Positions 837 through 30,932 of a DNA stretch of 34,162 bases are shown here, in pieces; position 1 is the first letter of the stretch, and each line of letters begins with the position of its first letter. The position numbers and the translations under genes are program-made. The notes under the pieces were generated by a model. That model had not been told where the DNA came from, did no database searches, and saw only the letters and a list, made by a program, of their open reading frames with translations. Source of the DNA: an uncultured archaeon (lineage in GTDB: Archaea > Nanobdellota > Nanobdellia > Woesearchaeales > CAIVOO01); assembly GCA_903842985.1 (NCBI GenBank), contig CAIMOB010000058.1, forward strand, positions 1-34,162. The letters run 5' to 3'.

Positions 837-1017
837 TTTAACATTCTAAAACCACAGCTCATATTTAAAACTTTTTAGGACTCAAGAGTAATAATACAAT
901 ATATAAACCGCAACTATTATAAACCCCTCCTTCTTACTACGTACTGTACGGGAAAAGGGAGAAAAAAAGACAAAATCTTATTTTCTCGGTTAATGAAAAC
1001 CGTTTTACAGCAAAAAG

Positions 1018-1356
1018 ATGAAAAGTAATAAAATAAAGCCGATTTTACCGAGTTTGCGGGAAAAAAAGCGATATTTGGGCTTTGAACTAATGCAAAAAGG
1101 CGCAAAAAGCGATTTTAAGGCAGTTTCAGCTGAAATAATGCGAAATGCCTCAAAACTTATAGGAGATTTAAGCCTTGCAAATGCCCAGATTCATATATTC
1201 CCTGAAAAATTCAATGGCAAAACAGGCATAATAAAGGTAAATAATAAATATCTTGACCATTTAAAGGCATCAATGGCATTGTCCAGTATTCAGATAAGAA
1301 GCGTAGCTGTTTCAGGCATGCTAAACAAAATCGAGAAAAAAATAGGTGAGGTGTAA
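1018..1356 (+). CDS. rnp2: Ribonuclease P protein component 2 (Pop5/Rpp14 family)
   Basis: LPSLREKKRYLGFE N-terminal motif and VSGMLNK C-terminal motif; canonical position upstream of psmA. Confidence 0.9.
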   Translation: MKSNKIKPILPSLREKKRYLGFELMQKGAKSDFKAVSAEIMRNASKLIGDLSLANAQIHIFPEKFNGKTGIIKVNNKYLDHLKASMALSSIQIRSVAVSGMLNKIEKKIGEV

Positions 1357-1357
1357 A

Positions 1358-2089
1358 ATGCAACCAGTACAGCATCAAATGATGGGGTATGACAGGGCAA
1401 TAACAATGTTCTCGCCGGACGGAAGATTGCTCCAGGTCGAATATGCAAAGAAAACAGTGAAGTTAGGAAATACTGCTTTAGGAATTGTCTGCAAAGACGG
1501 AGTTGTTTTGATTGCAGACAAAAGAATTGCTGACAAATTAATAGTCACAGAAGCTGTTGAGAAAATATGGCAGATTGATGAGCATGTCGGCGCAACTGCT
1601 TCAGGAATATTATCAGACGCGCGCGTCCTTGTTGAAAGGGCACAGCTGGAAGCGCAGCAGCACCGCGTTACATATGACAATGCAATTGATGTTTCAGAGA
1701 TTGTGAAGAACATCTGCGATTTGAAGCAGATATGCACGCAGTCCGGCGGGCTTAGGCCTTTCGGAGTTTCGCTGTTGGTTGCAGGCATTGACGAAACAGG
1801 GCCTATTCTGTATGAGACAGATCCAATCGGAATCTATTTCAGGTACAGGGCAGCTGCAATCGGCGAGGGAGAAACAGAGGTTGAGGAGATACTTACAAAG
1901 GAATACAAGGACAGCATAACTGTCGACGAGGCTTTGAAGCTTGGAGTCAGGGCGCTTGTAAAGATACTTGACAATAACTTTGACATTGACAGGATTGACG
2001 CTGCGTACATAAAGTTGGACAAGCCGAAGTTCACAAGGCTGACAAGAAAAGAAATAGAAAATATCTTTACGCAGATAAAGAAGAAGTGA
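1358..2089 (+). CDS. psmA: 20S proteasome alpha subunit
   Basis: GYDRAITMFSPDGRLLQVEYA alpha-subunit signature and RPFGVSLL; start moved to ATG 1358 after SD GGTGAGGTG (1345-1353). Confidence 0.97.
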   Translation: MQPVQHQMMGYDRAITMFSPDGRLLQVEYAKKTVKLGNTALGIVCKDGVVLIADKRIADKLIVTEAVEKIWQIDEHVGATASGILSDARVLVERAQLEAQQHRVTYDNAIDVSEIVKNICDLKQICTQSGGLRPFGVSLLVAGIDETGPILYETDPIGIYFRYRAAAIGEGETEVEEILTKEYKDSITVDEALKLGVRALVKILDNNFDIDRIDAAYIKLDKPKFTRLTRKEIENIFTQIKKK

Positions 2090-2093
2090 TAAT

Positions 2094-2825
2094 ATGACAA
2101 AGGGATTTGCAAAAAACCTGTACGGAGACCAGCCGCACATAAATGTGGCAAGGTACATCAAGGGCAAGTCAAATCATTTTGAAGTTGTCATAGACCCTGA
2201 CCTTGCAATGAAATTCAGGAACAACCAGATTTCTGATGTGAGGGATGTCCTGAAGAACGAGGGCGTTTTCATAGACGCTAAAAAGGGGTTGAGGCCTGCA
2301 GAAAACGAGCTAAAGGAAACATTCGGCACAACAGACCACCTGAAAATTGCAGAAAAAATAATCAGGGAAGGGCTTATACAGGTCTCTGAAAAATTCAGAG
2401 AGGAACAGAAAGAAGTCAAAAGAAGAAGAATAATCGATTTAATACATCAAAATTGCGTGGATTCAAAGACAGAGCTTCCTCATCCGGCAACGAGGATTGA
2501 AAACGCGATGAGGGAAGCAAAGGTAAGGATAGACGACAACAAGTCAGCTGAGGACCAGCTGCAGGACATAATAAAACAGTTGCGGGCTATCCTTCCGATA
2601 AAATTCGAAATAAAAGAATTGGAAATAAACGTGCCACTTAAACATGCATCAAGGGCGCACGGCGTGATAAAACAGCTTGCGAAAGTGACAGGCGAAAAAT
2701 GGAACGCCGACGGCTCTTTAAGCTGTACAGCAGATTTGCCCGCTGGTATGCAGGACGAGTTTTTTGAAAAAATTAACTCGCTCACGCACGGAGAGGCAGA
2801 GATTAAAGTTATAAGAAGCAAATAG
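2094..2825 (+). CDS. Ribosome maturation protein SBDS/Sdo1
   Basis: HFEVVIDP, DAKKG, FGTTD, PHP..RIENAM.EA and LPAG.Q motifs; conserved psmA-SBDS-rrp4 order. Confidence 0.93.
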   Translation: MTKGFAKNLYGDQPHINVARYIKGKSNHFEVVIDPDLAMKFRNNQISDVRDVLKNEGVFIDAKKGLRPAENELKETFGTTDHLKIAEKIIREGLIQVSEKFREEQKEVKRRRIIDLIHQNCVDSKTELPHPATRIENAMREAKVRIDDNKSAEDQLQDIIKQLRAILPIKFEIKELEINVPLKHASRAHGVIKQLAKVTGEKWNADGSLSCTADLPAGMQDEFFEKINSLTHGEAEIKVIRSK

Positions 2826-2833
2826 GAGGAAAA

Positions 2834-3598
2834 ATGAGTGAGCTTTTAGTAAAAAACAAAAGCATAGTTGTTCCTGGCGAGGAGCTGGCAAGCGGAATGG
2901 ACTTCCTGCCTTCGTTCGGGACATACAGGGACAAGGATATTATAGTTGCCTCGAGGCTCGGAATGGTGAACGTCGAAGGCAAAGTTATCAAGATAACACC
3001 CTTGTCAGGAAAATACAACCCAAGGAGAGGGGACATGATAATCGGAAAGATTGTTGATGTCTCATATTCAGGATGGAGAGTTGACACAAACTCAGCCTAT
3101 CCGGCAATGCTTTCAATAAAGGATGCAACATCAGAATTTATCAACAGAGGCGCCGATTTGACGCAGTTCTTCGATGTCGATGATTACATTGTTGCAAGCA
3201 TCTTCAATATCACATCGCAGAAGCTTATCGACGTCACAATGAAGGGCCCAGGGCTGAGGAAACTTGTCGGCGGAAGAATAATCCAGATAAACACCAACAA
3301 GGTTCCGAGAATCATAGGCAAACAGGGCTCAATGATAAGCATGGTCAAGGACGCGACCGGCTGCAAGATAATCGTCGGGCAGAACGGACTGCTGTGGCTG
3401 ACTGGTGAGCCGAAGATGGAATTGCTTGTAGTTGAGACAATAAAAAAAATAGAAGACGAAGCTCATATGAGCGGACTGACAGAAAAGATAAAGAACTTCC
3501 TTGAGAAAAAAACAGGAAAAAAAATAGAGCCAAGAGAAGAAGTCAGGAATGATGACATGCGCATGAACAGAAATGACGAAGTGCGCAGGGAGAGGTAA
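2834..3598 (+). CDS. rrp4: Exosome RNA-binding cap protein Rrp4 (S1+KH)
   Basis: VVPGEEL, Y.P..GD.IIG, KVPRIIGKQGSMI and IIVGQNG motifs. Confidence 0.95.
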   Translation: MSELLVKNKSIVVPGEELASGMDFLPSFGTYRDKDIIVASRLGMVNVEGKVIKITPLSGKYNPRRGDMIIGKIVDVSYSGWRVDTNSAYPAMLSIKDATSEFINRGADLTQFFDVDDYIVASIFNITSQKLIDVTMKGPGLRKLVGGRIIQINTNKVPRIIGKQGSMISMVKDATGCKIIVGQNGLLWLTGEPKMELLVVETIKKIEDEAHMSGLTEKIKNFLEKKTGKKIEPREEVRNDDMRMNRNDEVRRER

Positions 3599-11451: not shown

Positions 11452-11781
11452 TCAGCGATTTGCGTCATTTTTTGACCTTGTCTTTCTCTTGACCTTCTCC
11501 ATGTCCCTGATGTGGCTCAGGAAGTATTGAAGGCAGTCCACAGCGCAGAAAGACGCCTTCTTTTTAAAACCTTCCGGTCCAAATATGAGTGTATATGAGG
11601 CGTCATACGGCTCGAGCTCTGCAAAGCAGGTTGTGCAGAACTTCGTGCTGTTGTCAAGCTCCTGCATCTTCTCCCAGATTATTTTCTTCACTTCCCTGCC
11701 TCCCATCCCTATCTCTTTCTCGAACTTTCTCAGTTCGTCGTAATTCCAGTTCTTGATTGCGTCTCTTAGTTTGTCTTTCAT
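11452..11781 (-). CDS. Hypothetical protein with CxxC...FCxxxC (TRASH/treble-clef-like) metal-binding motif
   Basis: FCTTC ... FCAVDC; start overlaps the stop of the upstream fibre gene (ATGA). Confidence 0.75.
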   Translation of the reverse strand: MKDKLRDAIKNWNYDELRKFEKEIGMGGREVKKIIWEKMQELDNSTKFCTTCFAELEPYDASYTLIFGPEGFKKKASFCAVDCLQYFLSHIRDMEKVKRKTRSKNDANR

Positions 11782-14624
11782 TGTGCTTCCAGCGCCTCCA
11801 CCCTCTGCTTCAGGGCGTTGTTTTCTGATTTTAATTCTTCAATCTGCTGCTGCTGTTCCTGAATTGCGCTGATTACCAGCGGGTCAAACGAGCCGTACTC
11901 CATCATGTAATAGCCGTCATCACCTTTTTTAACGAGAGTTGGGACTATGTCTTTGTTTTGCTGTGCAACAAAGCCCATCTGTGTTCCGTTAGGGAAGCTT
12001 CCCTTCTGTATAGATTCCTTCTTGTCAGCAGGCATGCTGTCGTCTATGTCTTTTGCTTGTTTCCATTCAAAAGTTACTGGCTTTAAAGCAAGGACTTTGT
12101 CAAGTGCGCTGTTCAATGGCTTGATGTTCTTTTTCAGTCTTTCATCTGAGTTACCTAACCAGCTACCTGCTGCGGATTTTGAAGCTTGCCCATTAACTTC
12201 AAGTGTATTAGTTGCTGGAATCATTCCGATGCCGACTTTGCCTGTGCTCGTCACTCGCATGCGCTCAGTTGGGCTGAGGCCGTATGGGGTTGTCATGAAA
12301 ACAAGCGCGCCAGCATAGTCGCCATTTGTGCTGCTCTCCTTTATTCCCTTAATGCTGGCAAAATTTGCCCGCGCCCCTGCGCTGTTGTATTTGCCAAGGA
12401 ATGATAAACCCGCACCAACACCAGCAGCGAATGGTGAGTCATCTGTCAGGTATAGAATGTGCCGCGCATCGCCATTGATGATTGGCATACCTTCTACATC
12501 TAATTTCACTCCGGGAGTCGTGCCAATACCTACTGAACCGTCAACAAGCACATCATGCTGTGTTTTTCCGCCGCTGCCGCCGCAGCAGCCTGACTTGAAA
12601 TACGTTGCCTGTTTTGCAGTGCCTGAGCCGGGTATCGCTTTTGGATATATTTCGAAAACGCCATCATATTGAGGAGATAAAGGGGAGCCTGATTGAAGAA
12701 CAACATCATAATAAGGATTGCCATTTCCTATTCTTACATCTCCTACAACACGAAGTTTTTTGTCTACGTTTTTGTCTGCGTCTTCTGTGCCGATGCCGAC
12801 GTTGCCGGCGCTTGTTAGCGTCATTACATTCACTCCATTACCTGTAACTCCATTACCTGTTTGACTTCCAAGCCTCAAATCAGTATTAGCCCAGGTATTA
12901 ACTCTTGCCGCAGATACAGAAGCGTAACCTGCACCGCCGCCTATCAAAACTGTTTCCGGATTGCTGGCTGTTGTACCCACCCAGAAATCAGCATTTCCAT
13001 TCACACTTAATTTTCTATCCGGGCTTGTTGTGCCGATGCCGACGCTGCCATCATTTCCAAGAAACAGAGGAACTTTTCCGCTGGTCATGTCGTTAAATAT
13101 CAATCCTGCTGCTGGAGAACTGTCGGTCTGGAAAAGCCAATTATCAGTTCCAGCATTAGTTGATTCTAAAAATATTCTTGCATAGCCTGCTTTTATGTGT
13201 AATGGCACAATTGGGTTCATTGTTCCAATGCCGACTCTGCCTGAGAGGTCTATGTTAAAAGCATATGGAATAGTTGGGTTAGCTGGCGAAATTGTGAAAG
13301 TATTGTATGGTGTCATTCCACTCCACCACTGCCTCGCTCCTGAGCCATACCATTCAATGTAATTCCAAGGATGAACGCCGTCAGTTTGGCGTAACACCAA
13401 TATATTGTCATTAGTAGAACTTATTTCCAAAGGACCTCCGGGACTAGTCGTGCCGATGCCGACGTTGCCATTTGTAGCTATCATTAGTGGAGTTGTTAAT
13501 GTATTTCCAATCCACCTTTCAAAGCTCAATGAGCCTGCAACCGTGTTCCAAGGAGCTACATCACTATTTGCTCTCATCATCCACATATTGTTCCCTGGAG
13601 ATGCCAAAGGCTTACCCGTAGTTGCAATCTTGATCCCGCTATTGAGTCCCGGTCCGGTAATTCCAAAATCACCATTCACTTCAAGCGTATTGCTGGGATT
13701 CGTTGTGCCGATGCCGACGTAGCCGTTATTGCTAAAGCTTGCAATAACATTCGATGATGGCGCACCTTTTAACAGCAGTTGGTTGTTTGTTGTATCCAGC
13801 GACCAGTAAAAGCGTTGTGTTCCGCCATTATCAAAATGTCTAATTTGCGTAAGGCTTGAGCCAGAATTGTATATGTCAATGCCTCCCCTTACATCCAGTG
13901 GCGCTCCAGGAGTTGTAGTTCCGATGCCTACATTACCTGTGTTTGTGTTGTGAATATCATTCGCATTATTGCCTGGCGCCCAGAAGCCTCCTCCGCCTGC
14001 TGTGCTCAGGCATTTATTTCCAACAGCTGTGCAAATGTCTCCTGTTGCGTTTATTCTGCCGGCGACTTCCAGCTTTGCTGTAGGATTCGTAACACCGATG
14101 CCGATGTTGCCTGAATCACCCCAAGTAAGAATTTCAGTTTTCACACCTAGATTGTCCATCCAGCCAAGCGATCCGCGGCGGTATGCGTTTCCCCCCATAT
14201 TGTGGTACTGCTGAAGCAGGATTGCAGGCCCGTTGGCTGTGCCAGTAATCCACCATGGATTGCCGTCGCCAGCTGCGTATCTAAATCCGCCACTTGTCTG
14301 GGCAATTCCGTTGACCAAAACCTTTGTTGGGGAATCGCCAAAACCAGTTAAATGAATGTTATTGCCTGAATTCGACTGTATCCACATGTCGCCAGGCATA
14401 TTTGTATCGCAGCCATCAGTTCCGCACTGCACAATCCTTGACTTAAAATTATCAATATTGAACCACAAATTGCTCTCTCCTGAATTTGTCCCTGGCTTTA
14501 TGCCTATGTCGCCTGTCATTGTTCCAGGCCCGACGCTGTCGGCAGAATGCCCTGGATTCGGGACGTCTGCAAATGCTGTAGCTAATGTCAGCAGCATCAG
14601 CAGTGCATAAATTATTTTTTTCAT
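11778..14624 (-). CDS. Secreted tail-fibre-like repeat protein with C-terminal peptidase S74 intramolecular chaperone (ICA) domain
   Basis: Signal peptide ending AFA-D; nine GxVGIG-type repeats; SDERLKKNI autocleavage motif (Ser826, ~12149), GFVAQ, LVISAIQE and a terminal coiled coil. Confidence 0.88.
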   Translation of the reverse strand: MKKIIYALLMLLTLATAFADVPNPGHSADSVGPGTMTGDIGIKPGTNSGESNLWFNIDNFKSRIVQCGTDGCDTNMPGDMWIQSNSGNNIHLTGFGDSPTKVLVNGIAQTSGGFRYAAGDGNPWWITGTANGPAILLQQYHNMGGNAYRRGSLGWMDNLGVKTEILTWGDSGNIGIGVTNPTAKLEVAGRINATGDICTAVGNKCLSTAGGGGFWAPGNNANDIHNTNTGNVGIGTTTPGAPLDVRGGIDIYNSGSSLTQIRHFDNGGTQRFYWSLDTTNNQLLLKGAPSSNVIASFSNNGYVGIGTTNPSNTLEVNGDFGITGPGLNSGIKIATTGKPLASPGNNMWMMRANSDVAPWNTVAGSLSFERWIGNTLTTPLMIATNGNVGIGTTSPGGPLEISSTNDNILVLRQTDGVHPWNYIEWYGSGARQWWSGMTPYNTFTISPANPTIPYAFNIDLSGRVGIGTMNPIVPLHIKAGYARIFLESTNAGTDNWLFQTDSSPAAGLIFNDMTSGKVPLFLGNDGSVGIGTTSPDRKLSVNGNADFWVGTTASNPETVLIGGGAGYASVSAARVNTWANTDLRLGSQTGNGVTGNGVNVMTLTSAGNVGIGTEDADKNVDKKLRVVGDVRIGNGNPYYDVVLQSGSPLSPQYDGVFEIYPKAIPGSGTAKQATYFKSGCCGGSGGKTQHDVLVDGSVGIGTTPGVKLDVEGMPIINGDARHILYLTDDSPFAAGVGAGLSFLGKYNSAGARANFASIKGIKESSTNGDYAGALVFMTTPYGLSPTERMRVTSTGKVGIGMIPATNTLEVNGQASKSAAGSWLGNSDERLKKNIKPLNSALDKVLALKPVTFEWKQAKDIDDSMPADKKESIQKGSFPNGTQMGFVAQQNKDIVPTLVKKGDDGYYMMEYGSFDPLVISAIQEQQQQIEELKSENNALKQRVEALEAQ
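14026..14088. repeat. 63-nt exact direct repeat, copy 1 (copy 2 at 18049-18111)
   Basis: GCTGTGCAAATGTC...GTAGGATTC is identical in both fibre genes; the wider blocks 14001-14111 and 18024-18134 differ at 5 positions by manual count. Confidence 0.9.
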
Positions 14625-15889
14625 CTTACGTCTATTTTATCATTAAGCTTCGGAGCATACGCCTTTATCCCGATGCTTTCTGCGTATTCTTTCAGCGCAG
14701 CTATTGCTGGCGGGTCGCCATGGTTCATAATAAGCGCCTTTGGATTTGCCTTCTTGATTAGATTCCTCAATCCCGTCATTCCTGCATGGGCTGAAAAGTC
14801 AAACTGCTTCACAAAGCTCTTCACCGTGACTCTCTGGTTGTCTAATTTGACATGCCTGTTGTTAATCAGGTTTCTTCCGTTTGAGCCCTCTGCCTGGTAG
14901 CCAGTCAATAATATTGCTGTGTCGGGGTCGAAATAGAAATGCTTCATGTATTCTATTACTGGTCCGCCGTCGAGCATCCCTGATGTTGTCATGAAGATTG
15001 CTCTTTCCTTCACTATGTTGGCTCTTTCCCTCATTCCGTGAACCTCTTTAATGCTGTGGAATGAATTTTTCAGCGCGCCTATGTCCCTGACTTCATCCGG
15101 ATAGTTGAACAAGTCCTTTGTAACCCTTCTTGCCATGCCGTCTATGTAAATAGGAAGCCCAAGCTTCTTTTTGTTCAATAAAAGCATCAGCTCCTGCGCC
15201 CTTCCGACTGCGAAAGCAGGCACGAGCACAGAGCCTTTCTCGAATTTCTCCCTGACTGTTGCGATAAAATCATCTTCTGTGCTCTTTCTGTCAGGATGGT
15301 CCCTGTCGCCGTAGGTTGAATCAATTATCAGGACGTCAACATCTTCCTCATAATCTGTGTCTGCCTTGTTTAACAGCAAAGTCGGATCTGTGTTTATGTC
15401 GCCTGTGTAGAGAATGTTCTTATTGTCTGCGTTAACCATCACAGATGCTGAGCCGGGAATATGCCCTGCATCATATAATTTGAATCTGATGTTATTGAAC
15501 TTGTACCATTCATTTAGTCCGTGGATTCTTATGCTCTGCGCAATCCTTCTTACGTCTGCCTTCTGGTAGACAACACGACTTTTCTTCAGCCTGTCTATTT
15601 CATACGAATCTATTAACAGCTCCTGCGTTATTGCCCTTGTCGCAGCTGTGCCTATTATTGGGCAGTTCAGCCCCAGATGGTCGAACATCGGAAGCATCCC
15701 TGAATGGTCCAGGTGTGCGTGAGAAATGAATGCGATGTCTATTCCCTTAAGATTCTCTATTGGCGTTGGATATTCAATGTCAGGAGAGATTTTTACGCCT
15801 GCATCAAAAAGGAAGCGAGTTCCTTTTGTGTTGACTTCAATACAAGACCTTCCTACTTCCTGCGCAGCTCCATGCATTATAAATTTCAT
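14621..15889 (-). CDS. Metallo-beta-lactamase/beta-CASP ribonuclease (aCPSF2/YSH1-like, no KH domains)
   Basis: GAAQEVGRSC, DAG, SHAHLDH, AGHIPGS, YTGD, DSTYG, PAFAVGRAQE, TSGML.GG, GYQ, FSAHA and NHGD. Confidence 0.92.
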   Translation of the reverse strand: MKFIMHGAAQEVGRSCIEVNTKGTRFLFDAGVKISPDIEYPTPIENLKGIDIAFISHAHLDHSGMLPMFDHLGLNCPIIGTAATRAITQELLIDSYEIDRLKKSRVVYQKADVRRIAQSIRIHGLNEWYKFNNIRFKLYDAGHIPGSASVMVNADNKNILYTGDINTDPTLLLNKADTDYEEDVDVLIIDSTYGDRDHPDRKSTEDDFIATVREKFEKGSVLVPAFAVGRAQELMLLLNKKKLGLPIYIDGMARRVTKDLFNYPDEVRDIGALKNSFHSIKEVHGMRERANIVKERAIFMTTSGMLDGGPVIEYMKHFYFDPDTAILLTGYQAEGSNGRNLINNRHVKLDNQRVTVKSFVKQFDFSAHAGMTGLRNLIKKANPKALIMNHGDPPAIAALKEYAESIGIKAYAPKLNDKIDVR

Positions 15890-16053
15890 TTCTTCATCAC
15901 CTCAAACTCTATGTACCATCTATTTTCTTTGCTGTCATACTTGAAGAGAACATTGTGCTTCTTGGATTTATCTAAAGCGAAGAGGAGAGGCATAGGTATC
16001 GTCGTCTCGAAGCTCGAGCCTCTTTTGTATAATTTTCGTTTGATTGTTGTCAT
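15886..16053 (-). CDS. Small AbrB/MazE/SpoVT-like swapped-hairpin DNA-binding protein (55 aa; not in ORF track)
   Basis: Manually translated: MTTIKRKLYKRGSSFETTIPMPLLFALDKSKKHNVLFKYDSKENRWYIEFEVMKK. RKL.K.GSS...TIP is the AbrB-like pattern; its TGA overlaps the ATG of the nuclease; it starts 5 nt after the fibre gene stop. Confidence 0.78.
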   Translation of the reverse strand: MTTIKRKLYKRGSSFETTIPMPLLFALDKSKKHNVLFKYDSKENRWYIEFEVMKK

Positions 16054-16058
16054 TTTAG

Positions 16059-18872
16059 TTAAGTCGCCGCCACAATTTGAAGTTTGCAGCAGAGCGCTAT
16101 AAGATCGCCGCCTGATCCTGATCTGTAACCTACCGCAACATACTCATTTGTATCTAATGTATCAGCTGCATTCCTAAAACAATCTGCATTATAAGTACTG
16201 CCGTCAGTAAAGTAATCATTTGTACCTGGATAAAGCCAACCTTCTTGTGGGCTCTTAAAGCAAGAAGATTTGTCTACTGTGATTTTTACGCCTGTTAGAG
16301 TCCCTCCCCCACTTATCTTTACATTGCCAGAAACTTCAAGCTTTTCTGCTGGAGCTGTTGTGCCGATGCCGACTCTTTGTGTTGAGCCTTGGAAGTAAGC
16401 AATAGCTGAAGCCTTACCATTGCCAACAACCAAGTTTCTAAATTGATAAATGTCATTATTATAACCACGATAGTTTATCCAAAAATCAACTATACCGCTA
16501 TTCTGCGGTTGGCTCCACATTTCATTGGTAGCTCCGGTGCAAAGAGCTTTGTTGCCGATGCAAGTATTGCCAGCCACTTCTAGCATATATCCTGGAATTG
16601 TTGTGCCAATGCCGACGTTGCCGCTATTCTGAACATACAGCGCACCATTGCCAATATATGTTGGGCCGTTTCCTGATGTGCCAGGATGCTGTATGTGCAA
16701 ACCATTCGACCCTTTTGCATTTATCTCATTATCATAAATGCTTACGCCAGTTGAGCCAGCACTTTGCAGTCCACCTTCAATAGCAGGGAAAATAATTTGG
16801 TTACTTCCAGTCGGAGTAATTGCACTGGTGCCGCTTGCAGTCCAATAGCTTGTGCCAGCAGTGGCTGCTGTTGTTTGAGTTGTTCCGTCAGGAAACTTAT
16901 AACCGCCAGACGAAGATTCTATCATACCTGCTACATTCAATTTAGAAGTTCCCGGCGACGACGTGCCGATGCCGACGTTTCCGTCTCCTTTAAGAAACAA
17001 GACATTGCTGACTTGGCTTCCAATTCCGTTTGCAATGTTAAAGGATAAATAACTATTTGATCCGCTCATGTAACTTTTTAGCGAGTGATAATACCCATTA
17101 CCTTGATCTATCCTCATAAATTCGGCGTCAGGCACGTTACCAAGATGCAATCTTACTTGCGGGCTTGTTGTGCCGATGCCGACGTTGCCGCTGGACGCTA
17201 TCGTCATTGCAGTTATGCCGTCTGGTGAATTGGCGCCATATTTGTAACCATTGACATTATTAACAACAAAAGATAACGCACCTCCTGTCAAGGTTCTTCC
17301 TGCAATAATGAAATTGCCGCCGTTATTCCCCAACTGCAAAGAATTCCAACCTAAATCTGCGCGGTATGTTTCGTCTGAAGTGTATCTAGCAATTACATGT
17401 TGATTTGCACCTACCCCTAAATCGCCACCTTCAACATCTAGTTTGTAGGCTGGACCTAACGTGCCAATGCCGACGTTGCCTGTCTGGGTTATGCGCATCC
17501 TTTCATTCGCAATAGTCCCTGCTAAGTTTCCGGTACCGACATCAAATGCCATATCTCCATAAGAGAATATATCCATCTTGTTGCTTCCTAAGTATTGAAA
17601 TCCGCCATCGCCAGAAGAAACAGAGCTGATATACATCTTTGAATTATAAGAGTTAGACAATCCTTCAAATCTTGTGACTAAGCTGCCGGAAGGACTCTTT
17701 ACATGTAAAAGTGCTCCGGGGCTTGTTGTGCCGATGCCGACGTTGCCTGACTGCAAAATTGTAAATAAATCGCTATTATTAGATGTGAATACGAAACTTT
17801 TCCAACTGTTTGAATTCCTTTTAGTTTCAAATTTCATTAAAGCATCAGGGCTGTTAGTCTGAATTTTTGAAATAGGCGCTGAATCTGGTCTGAGTGTTAA
17901 GGTACCGTTTACATCCAACGCTGTTGCGGGGCTCTTCGTGCCAATACCGATTTTGTCGGCAAGGTTTGCTGGATAAAGATTGTTGCCTGTGCGATTCCAG
18001 AAGCCAGTGGCTGCTGCAGCAACTGTGCTAAGGCATTTATTGCCAACGGCTGTGCAAATGTCTCCTGTTGCGTTTATTCTGCCGGCGACTTCCAGCTTTG
18101 CTGTAGGATTCATAACACCGATGCCGACGTTGCCATTTGTAGCAACAATAGTCAGATATGGTGATGCGGCATTGTTGCGGGCGATGCCCAAATTCTCGCT
18201 GGCTCCATTATGATAGAAATTCCAGGTATTTGTTGAGCCTGCCGCAGAAAGTCTCAGCCCCCCAGCATAGTCATTCGTAGATTGCTTGATGTCTAACTGA
18301 GCTCCAGGGTTCGTAATGCCGATGCCGACGTAACCGTTTGGCTTGATATAAAAACTATTCATTCCATTTACCTGTAACCCATATCCATCATCTGTACCAA
18401 GAAACTGGGAAATTTTAGCAACATTGCTTCTCCAGAACTGAATCATGCCGACGCTTGAACCTGCTGCTGTGTTTGTATTCAATGCAGCCAATGTTCCGCT
18501 GTTAGAACTTACGCTAAGTTTTGCAGTTCCAATGCCTGTTGTGCTAATGCTAACATTTCCAAGCACAAGAACATTTGTATTACCTCCGTTCCTGGCAGAC
18601 AAATGGATGCTCTTGCCTGTAGAAGCCTGAATCCACAAATCACCAACATTATCACAGGTCCCGCTTGCTGCACATTGCACTATTCTTGAAGAAAGAGAAC
18701 CGCTATTGAACCACAGATTGCTCTCTCCTGAATTTGTTCCTGGCTTTATGCCAATGTCGCCAGTCATGTTGCCGGGACCTATTTGGTTTGCAGAGTGTCC
18801 TGGATTCGGTACGTCTGCAAAAGCGATTGCTACAGAAATCAGAAATACGACGAAAAAAAGCAGTTTTTTCAT
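16059..18872 (-). CDS. Secreted tail-fibre-like repeat protein with Cys-rich C-terminal tip (no S74 domain)
   Basis: Signal peptide ending AFA-D; N-terminus paralogous to 11778..14624; nine GxVGIG-type repeats; GGYKFPDGTTQTTA module; ends ...LIALCCKLQIVAAT. Confidence 0.85.
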   Translation of the reverse strand: MKKLLFFVVFLISVAIAFADVPNPGHSANQIGPGNMTGDIGIKPGTNSGESNLWFNSGSLSSRIVQCAASGTCDNVGDLWIQASTGKSIHLSARNGGNTNVLVLGNVSISTTGIGTAKLSVSSNSGTLAALNTNTAAGSSVGMIQFWRSNVAKISQFLGTDDGYGLQVNGMNSFYIKPNGYVGIGITNPGAQLDIKQSTNDYAGGLRLSAAGSTNTWNFYHNGASENLGIARNNAASPYLTIVATNGNVGIGVMNPTAKLEVAGRINATGDICTAVGNKCLSTVAAAATGFWNRTGNNLYPANLADKIGIGTKSPATALDVNGTLTLRPDSAPISKIQTNSPDALMKFETKRNSNSWKSFVFTSNNSDLFTILQSGNVGIGTTSPGALLHVKSPSGSLVTRFEGLSNSYNSKMYISSVSSGDGGFQYLGSNKMDIFSYGDMAFDVGTGNLAGTIANERMRITQTGNVGIGTLGPAYKLDVEGGDLGVGANQHVIARYTSDETYRADLGWNSLQLGNNGGNFIIAGRTLTGGALSFVVNNVNGYKYGANSPDGITAMTIASSGNVGIGTTSPQVRLHLGNVPDAEFMRIDQGNGYYHSLKSYMSGSNSYLSFNIANGIGSQVSNVLFLKGDGNVGIGTSSPGTSKLNVAGMIESSSGGYKFPDGTTQTTAATAGTSYWTASGTSAITPTGSNQIIFPAIEGGLQSAGSTGVSIYDNEINAKGSNGLHIQHPGTSGNGPTYIGNGALYVQNSGNVGIGTTIPGYMLEVAGNTCIGNKALCTGATNEMWSQPQNSGIVDFWINYRGYNNDIYQFRNLVVGNGKASAIAYFQGSTQRVGIGTTAPAEKLEVSGNVKISGGGTLTGVKITVDKSSCFKSPQEGWLYPGTNDYFTDGSTYNADCFRNAADTLDTNEYVAVGYRSGSGGDLIALCCKLQIVAAT
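18049..18111. repeat. 63-nt exact direct repeat, copy 2
   Basis: Identical to 14026-14088. Confidence 0.9.
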
Positions 18873-27280: not shown

Positions 27281-27742
27281 ATGGCAGATGAATACGCACT
27301 TGTTCCTGAAAAAGAGGTTAGGAGACTAAGAGAGGATATAGATTCTATCAAGAAGAATCCATTAGGTTCTTTGGGTGGAAACGATCTTGTTGAGAGCATC
27401 AAGAATTTGAATGCTGCAATTAATTCTTTAACAGAGCTATTCAAGACAGCTGCTGAAGAGCTAAAGATAGAGGAAAGGGAGACGCAGACAATCGCGACAA
27501 AAGTCGAGCCTTTGCTTGAAAAGATTGACTTAATAATGGACCAGAACAAAAAAATAGCAAGAGGCATTGTTGCAGTTGCTGACATGCTTGGAGGAGTTGA
27601 GGAGGAGAAACCAGCGTTTTCGCCGAGACCTCCTGTTTTTACGTCGAGGCAAGGACCTATGATGCCGCCTTCACTGCCTCCTCCGCCGGCGATGCCGCCC
27701 GCGCCTCCTGCACCGCCTGCCCCTAGAAAAGGGCTTTTCTAA
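27281..27742 (+). CDS. Hypothetical coiled-coil protein with Pro-rich C-terminal tail
   Basis: SD GAGGTGG upstream; heptad-rich core; PPSLPPPPAMPPAPPAPPAP tail. Confidence 0.75.
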   Translation: MADEYALVPEKEVRRLREDIDSIKKNPLGSLGGNDLVESIKNLNAAINSLTELFKTAAEELKIEERETQTIATKVEPLLEKIDLIMDQNKKIARGIVAVADMLGGVEEEKPAFSPRPPVFTSRQGPMMPPSLPPPPAMPPAPPAPPAPRKGLF

Positions 27743-28353
27743 TGGATGAGATAACCAAGCTAAGCGGAGTAAGCCTAAAAAATCTTTTCATAAGAGTGTG
27801 CAAGACAGCCAAGGCTGTTGAAGCCAAGAAAAGGCAGAAGGCTGATGTCGCGAGGCACATCGAAAGAATAAAATCGCTTTACACTGAAAAAGGCGTGAGC
27901 AGACAAAGAATTGATGATGAGACAGGCGCGCTTTCTTTAAAAATAAATGAGATAATCGACAAGGAAAAGCAGATAACCCACAGGCAGGATGATGAAGATG
28001 AACTGCTGAGAAAGCTTCAGGCAAGAGTTGAGCAGATAGGTGTCACGCCGCTGCCGCAGACGAAGAAGGTTGAGGATTTCATGAAGATGTCGCAGTCACT
28101 GCAGGAAAACATTTCCAGAATAAAAGATGTGACAAGTGAGATGGAGGAAGAAGAGAGGGAAAGGCTGGGCAGGATTGAAGAGAAATTCGGCCTGACAGAA
28201 GGCGAGCTAAAAGAAATAGAGGAAAAATTGAATCTGCTTGAAAAAGAGTACCAGAGGCTCAGGGGATCTGGGAAGGAGAAGAAAAAAGTGGAAATGCTGG
28301 GCTCAAAGATAAAGAAGCAGAAGGAAGTTCTTAAGAAACTTAAACACAGTTAG
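27742..28353 (+). CDS. Hypothetical coiled-coil protein
   Basis: TAATG coupling to the upstream gene; highly charged heptad-rich sequence. Confidence 0.72.
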   Translation: MDEITKLSGVSLKNLFIRVCKTAKAVEAKKRQKADVARHIERIKSLYTEKGVSRQRIDDETGALSLKINEIIDKEKQITHRQDDEDELLRKLQARVEQIGVTPLPQTKKVEDFMKMSQSLQENISRIKDVTSEMEEEERERLGRIEEKFGLTEGELKEIEEKLNLLEKEYQRLRGSGKEKKKVEMLGSKIKKQKEVLKKLKHS

Positions 28354-28927
28354 AAAGGCATTTGCCTGTAAATGTCAATATTGCTGTTCTTATTCCGGGT
28401 GTTGCGTCAGACGGCACAACAATCCTTACCGAATTGTTGAATGTGTCCTCGCTGCTTCCATATTGCATCAGGCCGCACAATGACTTTGATGTTTTTTCAA
28501 TGCTGATGTAGGTTGTTTCGAATCCTGTAGTACACGCGTTTGGCTCTGTTGCTATGCCTTTTATCATGAATCCTGGGCTTGTTCCGCCGACAAACGTAGC
28601 TGCGTCTTCAGTCGAGGTTATGTTCACCGAAATGTTCACAGTGCCGTCGTTTTCTGCGCGGATGTACTGCGGCGCGCCCCAGCTCCATGTTCCGTTTATT
28701 GCGCTTGACAAGGAACTGTCAAGTATTGCGTTTGTTGACGTGCTGTTAACCCTTCCTGGGCCGAAATTTATGTCATAGTTGATTAAAATAGAAGTTTCTG
28801 AGCTGAGATTTATCGAGACATTCGCAAGTGTTCCGAACCCAAAAATCCCTTCCCTTAAAACAACAAATCCGAGCATCAAGACTACTATAGAAATTCCAAC
28901 AAGGATTGCTAGTGATGTGTTTTTCAT
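28340..28927 (-). CDS. Hypothetical secreted/membrane-anchored surface protein
   Basis: N-terminal hydrophobic helix; Asn/Ser/Thr-rich beta-type body with multiple N-x-S/T sequons; four Cys. Confidence 0.72.
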   Translation of the reverse strand: MKNTSLAILVGISIVVLMLGFVVLREGIFGFGTLANVSINLSSETSILINYDINFGPGRVNSTSTNAILDSSLSSAINGTWSWGAPQYIRAENDGTVNISVNITSTEDAATFVGGTSPGFMIKGIATEPNACTTGFETTYISIEKTSKSLCGLMQYGSSEDTFNNSVRIVVPSDATPGIRTAILTFTGKCLSNCV

Positions 28928-28945
28928 AAAAATAAAAATAAAAAA

Positions 28946-29116
28946 TTAAAGGTCCTTTGCCATTACGGTTTTTCTTCCGTTTGCTTCAGCCCTTTTGCAA
29001 GCTTCTTTGATAAGCTGCTCAACTTTTTGTGACAAAGCATCAGCGAGGTCGCCTGCTACATTGTAGCCCTTTGCAACATCCTTAATCTTTGCCTTAACAA
29101 CCAAACTGTCTGTCAT
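28946..29116 (-). CDS. Small histone-fold protein (DUF1931/Bd0055-like, truncated alpha3), 56 aa
   Basis: MTDSLVVKAKIK...ADALSQKVEQLIKEACKRAEANGRKTVMAKDL; RKT...DL clamp; ATG 29116 preceded by SD GAGGTGG. Confidence 0.88.
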   Translation of the reverse strand: MTDSLVVKAKIKDVAKGYNVAGDLADALSQKVEQLIKEACKRAEANGRKTVMAKDL

Positions 29117-29243
29117 TAAAACCACCTCAATTTTTTTTAGCATTATCTGGGTTTTTGCACCCGACTATCCAAAATTATATATGATTATATATAAAGCTTT
29201 TGGTTTTAATAATGGCTAAAACCCTCAAATTCCGGCGTTTAAG

Positions 29244-30932
29244 CTACTTATGAGTAAACCAAAAGTGATATTTTCCTTCCTTTACTTCATCAAGCCTTAC
29301 AAAGCCGAATCTCTCAAACTGGCATATGTCACCCGGCTTAAGCTTCTTTATGCCTGCCTCTCCAAATCCCCTCTCTGTCTTTGCGTCAGGCATCAGGACA
29401 ACAACTTCAACAAGCTCTTTTTCAACAGGAAGCCAGTGTATTATTTTCTCACCGCCTTTCTTATATCTGTCATACTCAATAGAATCAAACACAAGCTCTT
29501 TTCCTATTTTTGTCAGGTTGAGACAATCCATAAGCCTGTAAAGATAATTGTCTTTCATTGAATTGAAATCATTTTTTGTGATGAAGAATTTCTTGTGCGC
29601 CTTGAAAACCCTTTTTCCCATTTCAATGCGGTCAGGATGCACGTCAATCTCAACCTTATGCTCAGGCGCGTCCTTTACTTCAACTTCAACAGGGTCATTG
29701 ATGAAGAAATACCTGTTTGACTTCGGGTCAATTATGTCCCTGTTGTATGCGTCCAAAAGTTTGAAATATTCCTCTGCCTTGATTGTCTTGTCAACAGGCG
29801 ATACGCCTGTGTCTGTTGCAAACTTGATGAATGCCTCCGGCTGGTAGCCCCTTCTTCTCAGCGCTGCCAAAAATGGAAGCCTTATGTCATCCCAGCCTGT
29901 GAATTCGCCTGACTCAATTCTCAGCCTTGTCTGCGAGCAGCTGACTTCCATGCCTTCAAAATTAATCCTGCCGAAAAACAATGACTCAGGAATCGGCTTG
30001 TCAAGATAATTGTAAACATACTCCTGCTTTTTCGCATTGTCCATGTGGTCCTTTCCTCTTATCAAGTGAGTCATCTTCGTGTCCATGTCGTCGATAACTA
30101 CTGAGAAGCTCATCAGCGGCCAAACCCTGTATGCCTCTCCCTTTCTCGGATGCTTGAACTCATTTATTCTCATTGCAGGCCAGTCTCTCATTGCAGGATT
30201 CTTGTGCTTAATGTCTGTTTTTATCCTCAGGACAGCTTCGCCTGGCTTGTATTCCTTAAACATCATTTTCCATCTTTTGATATTTTCTTCCTTTGAAATG
30301 TTCCTGCAGGGGCATGGCTCCATTTTATCTGCCAGCTCCTTGAACGCCTCTGAAGAGCAAGTGCAGACATACGCCTTTTCCATCTCAACTAATTTTTCAG
30401 CATACCTGTAATAGATATCCATTCGGTCTGACTGTATCATGAATTCAGAAACGCCGTTATTTGTCAGCCATTTCGCATCCTCTTCAATCAAATTGTATGA
30501 TTGCGGGTCAATGTTCTCGGGATTTGTATCAGATATCCTAATAATAAATTTTCCATCATATATCCTGCTGTATGCATAGTTTAATGCTAGAACAAAAGCG
30601 TGGCCGATATGCAGCGGACCTGAAGGGCTTGGCTCAAACCTCATCACAACCTTGCCTTGCTTTGCATTCTTTAATTCTGCAAGCTTCTTTTCTTCCGGCT
30701 TTTTTTCCTCAAGAAGCTCTGGAGCGATTTTTTTAAGTGTTTCAAGCTGCTCTTCTGCTGATTTTTTTGAGACTTCCTTGATTGTTTTCTTTATCTCCTC
30801 CCTTAACTCCTTTATTTTTGGCTTGAGATTAGGATTCTGCGAGAAGATATGCCCCAGGACAGCTCCTTCGCTGGGCTTTCCATTGTATTTGATGGAGTTA
30901 TGCAGCACATATTTCAATACAATGTCTTTCAT
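29244..30932 (-). CDS. gltX: Glutamyl-tRNA synthetase (archaeal type)
   Basis: RFEPSPSGPLHIGH, DTNP, AYVC.C, RVWP, TH.IRGKDH, GWDD.RL and QFERFGFVR.D; ATG 30932 preferred over the track start. Confidence 0.96.
   Translation of the reverse strand: MKDIVLKYVLHNSIKYNGKPSEGAVLGHIFSQNPNLKPKIKELREEIKKTIKEVSKKSAEEQLETLKKIAPELLEEKKPEEKKLAELKNAKQGKVVMRFEPSPSGPLHIGHAFVLALNYAYSRIYDGKFIIRISDTNPENIDPQSYNLIEEDAKWLTNNGVSEFMIQSDRMDIYYRYAEKLVEMEKAYVCTCSSEAFKELADKMEPCPCRNISKEENIKRWKMMFKEYKPGEAVLRIKTDIKHKNPAMRDWPAMRINEFKHPRKGEAYRVWPLMSFSVVIDDMDTKMTHLIRGKDHMDNAKKQEYVYNYLDKPIPESLFFGRINFEGMEVSCSQTRLRIESGEFTGWDDIRLPFLAALRRRGYQPEAFIKFATDTGVSPVDKTIKAEEYFKLLDAYNRDIIDPKSNRYFFINDPVEVEVKDAPEHKVEIDVHPDRIEMGKRVFKAHKKFFITKNDFNSMKDNYLYRLMDCLNLTKIGKELVFDSIEYDRYKKGGEKIIHWLPVEKELVEVVVLMPDAKTERGFGEAGIKKLKPGDICQFERFGFVRLDEVKEGKYHFWFTHK

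Follow-up and report, generated by a model that had tools for sequence, protein, structure and literature searches.

Two fibre genes on the chromosome of an uncultured archaeon of the order Woesearchaeales consist of variable modules that are joined at a short motif with a recurrent DNA spelling. A preliminary description of this DNA had proposed these junctions as sites of recombination or homogenisation at which modules are swapped in frame. Comparison of sequences supports the proposal: the synonymous codons are locked over a narrow stretch and depart from background, the orthologues in a congener are non-collinear, alignment breakpoints fall at the motif, and some modules are common to two domains of life. 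Short-homology recombination between homogenised junctions, on an evolutionary timescale and with no programmed switch, is the likely explanation.

Two fibre genes and their protein family

The window, i.e. the whole stretch of 34,162 nucleotides that was analysed, is one contig (C58) of an 879-kb genome that is 92.65% complete. Both flanks of the fibre locus on this contig are core archaeal genes. The clusters closest to one neighbouring gene place the lineage in Nanobdellota (DPANN). The locus contains genes A and B (Table 1). Each has a single hydrophobic stretch, located at the N-terminus, in a hydropathy scan (not a dedicated signal-peptide predictor), which indicates a signal peptide and no further membrane segment. 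Gene B carries SDERLK at residue 826, corresponding to the SDxxxK of S74 and a feature of MAT fibres. For gene A a Pfam profile search gave no match, S74 included. Residues 452-685 of gene A match Bdellovibrio Bd2133 (PDB 8OND) with an E-value of 6e-18, and homology to the MAT beta-helix fibres is also seen with the Bdellovibrio entry 8OML (E 0.004) and with one further match (E 0.002). The motif of genes A and B corresponds to the capping loop described for trimeric beta-helix fibres in the cited sections of Caulton et al. (2024, PMC10769870). By homology, both genes are predicted to encode secreted, beta-rich surface fibres of the MAT or phage-fibre kind, which may assemble as trimers, be displayed at the cell surface and bind a host. 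They are classed as MAT-like and not as MAT: the N-domain of the archaeal fibres occurs in two types, which are swapped between orthologues, unlike the invariant, beta-rich N-domain of MAT fibres.

The conserved 55-aa gene of the locus was considered as a dedicated fibre partner and rejected. Of 301 genomes in the order, 154 carry it, a tally that includes unpublished genomes, and in none of the 29 loci examined does it adjoin a fibre gene with repeats.

Table 1. Features of the fibre locus, in positions of the window
Feature	Position	Strand	Remarks
Fibre gene A	16059..18872	-	937 aa; signal peptide and N-domain, then 8 internal modules among 9 motifs; non-S74 tip (MAT NS74-like)
Fibre gene B	11778..14624	-	948 aa; signal peptide and N-domain, then 8 internal modules; C-terminus with S74 chaperone/protease plus coiled coil
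Peptidase_S74 domain, gene B aa 826-899	11928..12149	-	PF13884, E 7e-14
beta-CASP metallo-beta-lactamase nuclease between the fibre genes	14621..15889	-	housekeeping neighbour, 93% identical in congener
55-aa conserved small gene	15886..16053	-	copied with gene A flanks to third fibre locus; widespread, not fibre-specific
Nine 18-bp junction cores, gene A (G-N-V-G-I-G codons)	18318-18335, 18117-18134, 17940-17957, 17730-17747, 17463-17480, 17172-17189, 16965-16982, 16605-16622, 16362-16379 (span 16362..18335)	-	all in the same orientation
Nine 18-bp junction cores, gene B	14094-14111, 13920-13937, 13707-13724, 13452-13469, 13224-13241, 13032-13049, 12789-12806, 12522-12539, 12225-12242 (span 12225..14111)	-	
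A module 3	17748..17957	-	sole internal module common to the congener orthologue (module 1 there)
B module 2	13725..13937	-	sole internal module common to the congener orthologue (module 3 there); DNA block ends at junction core
112-nt block in A	18023..18134	-	95.5% identical to B 14000-14111; 5' end is first base of junction core
Partner 112-nt block in B	14000..14111	-	
A module 4 (aa 376-464)	17481..17747	-	whole-module homologue, 78% in Pacebacteria proteins P0039/P0040; 68-70% in P0003, P0016, P0036
Candidate in-frame deletion allele (810 nt, 270 codons, A modules 6-8 skipped)	16356..17165	-	single contig, run X4; 18 nt fit both sides

The junction motif and its codon lock

Nine GxVGIG motifs had been described in each gene. 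Of these 18 junctions, 16 read V-G-I-G and two read I-G-I-G, and 16 have the leading glycine. Spacing from motif to motif gives modules of 58-120 aa in A and B. The shared spelling that had been described is present, with CC(G/A)ATGCCGAC at 14 of 18 junctions and the exact form CCGATGCCGAC at 11, as are a 24-mer at 13021, 17161 and 17719 (the last two copies being identical over 29 nt) and a 26-mer at 13453 and 18118. The segments between junctions are mostly dissimilar, as had been claimed, and A and B are homologous at one internal module pair only. All counts and coordinates of the preliminary description were reproduced.

The word GTCGGCATCGG occurs at 11 of the 16 VGIG junctions of A and B. 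Genome codon use, conditioned on the amino acid and the next base, predicts 0.0077 per site (0.8%; P 2e-20). The junction codons thus depart from background, and protein selection alone is insufficient to explain them, as had been argued earlier. Genome-wide, 13 of 14 copies of GTCGGCATCGG lie on the two fibre-gene contigs, and in the congener (G001) eight of nine VGIG sites are locked in the same spelling. At least 17 identical nucleotides stand in register in 27 of 153 junction pairs; redrawing the synonymous codons 500 times gave 0.5 such pairs on average and never more than 4. The lock is limited to the six GNVGIG codons, where GC3 is 0.73-0.89 against 0.15-0.50 expected (37 junctions, five genes). 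For the conserved residues that come next (Thr, Thr, Pro, Leu, Val, Gly), same-codon rates are as expected, with a mild excess of GC3 at the two Thr only.

Distribution of the spelling

Of 301 genomes in the order, 82 contain GNVGIGT in one spelling or another and 18 contain GGCAACGTCGGCATYGGSAC. A single one of 1536 possible spellings accounts for 32 of ~330 non-self GNVGIGT sites, in 14 genomes, and several genomes with the recurrent spelling have 44% GC or less. These order-wide word tallies, like that of the 55-aa gene, include the unpublished genomes G209, G211, G245, G273, G135, G185 and G207, of which the other claims are independent. Near-complete locks are found in AT-leaning genes (5/5 in G217, and 5/6 and 5/8 in the metagenome loci L053 and L061), these three loci being a selected group that was picked by the word. 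The fibres of G066, G040, G010, G032 and others are unlocked, as are many archaeal and viral fibres. Among the matches listed, GTCGGCATC stands at 14 of 208 unselected sites of viral fibres versus 2.2 expected, and in word-selected viral genes at 57 of 115 further sites versus 4.7, again among the matches listed. The sixth codon differs by lineage: this genus prefers GGC, while in other genomes the word has GGG there at 38 of 42 sites. Such a preference is what homogenisation within lineages predicts.

Unlocked genes of G040 and G148 also have common blocks that end at the motif. Since unlocked fibres exchange at the motif, the lock is not needed for exchange, and it appears to be a sign or an accelerator of the process rather than a requirement. 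The idea that locked modules travel more was not supported: 3 of 50 modules with locked flanks are common across genomes, compared to 20 of 124 unlocked ones, ten of the 20 being tandem copies in one genome.

Comparison with a congener

The only congener compared is 64% complete. Its fibre locus is syntenic, with flanks that are 84-86% identical at the nucleotide level. The orthologues of A and B are 780 and 671 aa long and keep their signal peptides and tip types. The preliminary description had set collinear orthologues against its own proposal; the orthologues found are non-collinear, with one of eight internal modules in common for A and one of eight for B, each at another position.

A third paralogue, gene C, lies on contig C33 and is absent from its syntenic, contiguous site in the congener. 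The flanks of gene C copy those of gene A, which marks it as a copy of the A locus, and it is a mixture of modules from A, B and the congener's A. The N-domain in both congener orthologues is of the gene C type. A search for strain-level orthologous loci with the beta-CASP gene as query found none in metagenome contigs, and genome contigs gave the congener alone.

Breakpoints at the motif and modules in common

Module-by-module comparison, which had been suggested for locating breakpoints, places them at the motif. In the 112-nt block of A and B, identical synonymous codons number 27 of 30, versus 0.74-0.82 for orthologous housekeeping genes, and neither of the congener's two orthologues was found to have the block. 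Because its synonymous identity exceeds that of orthologous housekeeping genes, the block probably moved after the species split; from these small numbers we infer a recent transfer from paralogue to paralogue. The B/B2 block ends at the core and the C/A2 block starts at the core. Several DNA blocks end within a module near the Trp/stalk linker, a second joint.

The match of A module 4 to the Pacebacteria proteins P0039 and P0040 runs from motif to motif, and in these two and the three proteins at 68-70% the neighbouring modules differ wherever comparable. No homologue of this module was found in viral contigs. Homologues that span a module wholly or nearly so are present in other proteins for two modules of A (5 and 8) and three of B (4, 7 and 8). 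Among 221 database proteins compared, no homologue was found of A modules 1, 3 and 6 or B modules 1, 2, 3, 5 and 6. These searches used the best 120 of 1370 and the best 120 of 892 proteins.

A set of 300 fibres contained 166 homologous module pairs (at least 55%), and in these the motif marks where homology switches. Outside the module, identity is no higher than random, at 0.11-0.28 ahead of the left motif and 0.07-0.11 at variable positions beyond the right one. Inside, it rises to 0.44-0.50 after the left motif and 0.55-0.82 before the right. Neighbours of common modules are homologous in 0 of 263 testable cases, where protein pairs with more than 34% of modules in common were dropped and pairs are not independent, and in 16 of 397 under a looser 50% filter. 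About half of the shares in the looser-filter set (239 of 462) involve part of a module.

Reads and recombination machinery

Contigs from four low-depth runs of one study were compared with the locus at 88% likeness. Among 32 of the 185 pieces, contigs span at least 10 of the 18 junctions with the modules in the reference order, which supports the assembly. The contig from run X4 that skips 810 nt joins two cores in frame; it has a depth of 4.8, a shorter side of 69 nt and three substitutions nearby. It is a lead only, because it is a single contig and the letters between are marked as not known. As a weak hint, it suggests a three-module in-frame deletion allele at the word. The mapping of reads that had been proposed for finding rearrangements thus gave this one hint of a variant allele, and exchange otherwise belongs to evolutionary time. 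Seven of nine read joints, with sides of 21-28 nt at the motif, were dismissed as motifs of other organisms, and a further joint falls beyond the fibre genes. Bins of low depth did not count as evidence.

No recombinase or reverse transcriptase gene had been recognised in the window. For recombinases this extends to the whole genome (92.65% complete), in which PF00589, PF00239 and PF01548 gave no match, i.e. no tyrosine, serine or IS110 recombinase. For reverse transcriptases it does not, since the genome has one, in a DGR aimed at other genes. A DGR was rejected as the fibre mechanism: its template on contig C54 matches C54 and C13 only (two other genes) and not the fibres. A shufflon or invertase was rejected as well (no inverted repeats at the junctions, and no tyrosine or serine recombinase in this genome), as were an integron (IntI integrase and hairpin attC sites not found) and a target of an IS110/bridge recombinase (DEDD IS110 recombinase not found in the genome). 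RadA is present. A length of 18 bp is short for RadA-type recombination. A literature search on GC-rich microhomology in illegitimate recombination returned nothing relevant.

Proposed mechanism and alternatives

The GNVGIGTTxP capping-loop motif is likely a structural joint between modules, and a crossover there would therefore preserve both frame and fold. Modules may be gained, lost and replaced via crossovers within the motif DNA, with partners that could be paralogues in the genome or foreign fibre DNA of bacteria, other archaea and viruses. The breakpoints lie at the motif; the donors and the direction of transfer are proposed. The substrate in common would be the GC-rich 18-bp core, with up to 29 bp of perfect homology, perhaps kept uniform by repeated crossing-over and conversion and by easier uptake of modules that already have the common spelling. 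RadA or microhomology annealing, both general host functions, would probably act, with no dedicated recombinase. Folding would select viable products, and the outcome would be fast evolutionary turnover of the fibre shaft.

Against this explanation, breakpoints at domain joints are also expected from folding selection alone. Rare illegitimate shuffling may be filtered by folding, with the lock arising independently from mRNA structure at a critical loop or from translational accuracy or pausing. This would agree with locked codons that end in C and with unlocked fibres that are mosaic at the same joint. However, the lock does not extend to the loop's invariant Pro, Leu and Thr, codon use is not comparably biased in 51 Walker A motifs or in ten housekeeping genes (GTC 0.27-0.34, ATC 0.27-0.31), and many relatives with the motif are unlocked. 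A hairpin or RNA structure for the word was rejected, as its folding is no stronger than that of GC3-matched spellings (rank 0.09-0.67), and this alternative as a whole seems unlikely. A site-specific enzyme supplied in trans by a virus, mobile element or unassembled gene is less probable still. Such an enzyme would recognise the word and recombine cassettes as in integrons or shufflons, which would fit the sharp 18-bp edges, the recurrence of one spelling across families and viruses at the counts given above, and a junction word that is CpG-rich in a CpG-poor genome (0.70). It is difficult to reconcile with a genome that has no match to the recombinase families, with word copies that are direct repeats only, have no dyad or hairpin signal and show graded degeneracy, and with unlocked genes that swap at the same joint.

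The identity could also date from duplications of a single ancestral module within the gene, with exchange no longer ongoing. Tandem module duplications are found in G066 and G010, and gene C copies the A locus. This reading is largely refuted and very improbable, however: the interiors of the modules are unrelated to each other and have a lower GC3 (0.29-0.41) than the genome median (0.45), synonymous identity drops to chance within a few codons outside the core, and the congener orthologues are made of other modules with the same lock. An assembly artefact at short repeats is scarcely credible. The genome is metagenome-assembled and the runs are low-depth, but the frames of A and B are intact, reads bridge the junctions noted above, and the same architecture is present in the independent assembly of the congener.

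Homology-based exchange over evolutionary time is retained as the preferred explanation. A broader version of it is conceivable but doubtful, in which GGC AAC GTC GGC ATC GG(G/C) would be a community-wide compatibility standard. Word-flanked modules would form a pool for DPANN archaea, CPR bacteria and viruses, the commonest spelling would be favoured because it has the most partners, and exchange would be fast enough to give in-frame variants within a population.

Significance and relation to known systems

Genes A and B are concrete candidate adhesins that bear on host recognition and host change in DPANN. Their shafts are almost wholly rebuilt between two congeners, and a motif-bounded module that an archaeon and CPR bacteria have in common at 78% identity points to fibre parts crossing domains. 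With a defined 18-bp site, the role of the junction is testable by synonymous recoding.

In shufflons, invertible tail-fibre loci and integrons, a short repeat in or between coding cassettes sets the crossover. Unlike in shufflons and integrons, the repeats of A and B are direct only and have no hairpin, a recombinase was found neither next to them nor elsewhere in the genome, and a silent cassette store was not seen. DGRs diversify surface proteins in DPANN and CPR, altering adenines and not moving modules. The diversification of surface proteins is a likeness to A and B, and the template of the one DGR in this genome matches other genes.

The MAT fibres of Bdellovibrio bacteriovorus show tip swapping and an invariant N-domain of ~130 aa (Caulton et al. 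2024, PMC10769870). As described there, they resemble A and B in having a signal peptide, the capping-loop motif, adjacent S74 and non-S74 members and an evolutionary exchange of parts, in addition to the Bd2133 match. They differ in that A and B belong to an archaeon and have exchanged most shaft modules as well as the N-domain. Identity of junctions at the DNA level and a recombination mechanism are not among the topics discussed in the cited sections of that paper. The open-access literature yielded no paper that treats these fibres or their junctions in archaea; Supplementary Tables 3-4 of PMC10769870 may list further homologues.

In adhesin and tail-fibre genes of T-even phages, gp38 has glycine-rich motifs and exchange takes place at conserved motifs (Trojet et al. 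2011, PMC3157838, citing Tetart et al. 1996, 1998). By that account the likeness to A and B is that variable segments lie between conserved Gly-rich motifs, with exchanges in or near the motifs, and in A and B too the crossovers fall in the conserved motifs between variable segments. Unlike the T-even genes as described there, A and B are on a cellular chromosome, exchange whole modules that vary in number and order, have a six-codon synonymous lock and include cross-domain modules. The features of a virion or phage tail locus are absent, as A and B neighbour core archaeal genes in a locus that is syntenic in the congener. Based on these comparisons, A and B appear to act like T-even motif exchange applied to MAT-like fibres, and not like a shufflon, an integron or a DGR target. 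The principle is already known from phages, and what is new here is an archaeal, cross-domain case.

A third fibre gene and the small gene beside the fibre locus

The third fibre gene, C, stands between two genes that we take to be peptidase-like and tgt-like, and was inserted together with copies of the gene A promoter and of the small gene downstream of gene A. The corresponding site is empty in the congener, G001. This small gene, unannotated in the window and duplicated along with the fibre locus, encodes a 55-aa protein that we tentatively take to be AbrB/MazE-like, as a weak atlas lead also hints. The protein occurs in 154 of the 301 genomes of the order, where its gene often neighbours a beta-CASP or D-aminoacyl-tRNA deacylase gene.

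In another genome of the family (G003, locus L521), a shorter secreted protein has an N-terminus of the related GHSA type. It is encoded near the 55-aa gene and the deacylase gene, and this neighbourhood suggests that the locus has long served as a slot for surface proteins. At L102 (G070:C55), a fibre open frame runs to at least 5787 codons and carries 34 junction motifs.

Features of the window and of its genome, G000
Feature	Contig or locus	Position	Strand
Fibre gene C	C33 (L001)	975-3578	
55-aa protein gene	window	15886-16053	-
55-aa protein gene, second copy	L001	3587-3751	
Second recurrent joint	window	18023-18040, 14000-14020	
PNPGH motif	window	18780-18815, 14530-14565	
DGR, complete-looking (L113)	C54 + C13	27704-29278 + 21-108	
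DGR reverse transcriptase	C54	within 27704-29278	
DGR template repeat	C54	28746-28833	
DGR variable repeat 1	C54	29131-29218	
DGR variable repeat 2	C13	21-108	
Intergenic palindrome (core TGTAGCGATCGCTACA)	C54	24525-24575	

Other features of the genome

A complete-looking DGR is present, and nearly all mismatches between its template and the two variable repeats are at positions where the template has adenine. Each of the two targets is located at the end of a contig. No tyrosine recombinase, even of Xer type, was matched in this 92.65% complete genome. A repeated intergenic palindrome with the core TGTAGCGATCGCTACA, also found on C6, C2 and C4, stands upstream of a TATA-like stretch, with a start codon downstream on C54 and C6, and is possibly a regulator site.

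Further exchange joints

The PNPGH motif follows the signal peptide. The N-domain that comes after an orthologous signal peptide is of one type in G000 and of another in G001, which indicates that this motif also acts as an exchange point. A second recurrent joint is found in the window's fibre genes and in gene C. Shared fibre blocks frequently have their boundary at a short stalk of Ala/Gly/Thr ahead of a conserved Trp, and this stalk joint resembles the stalk linker described for the Bdellovibrio MAT fibre Bd2133 (PMC10769870).
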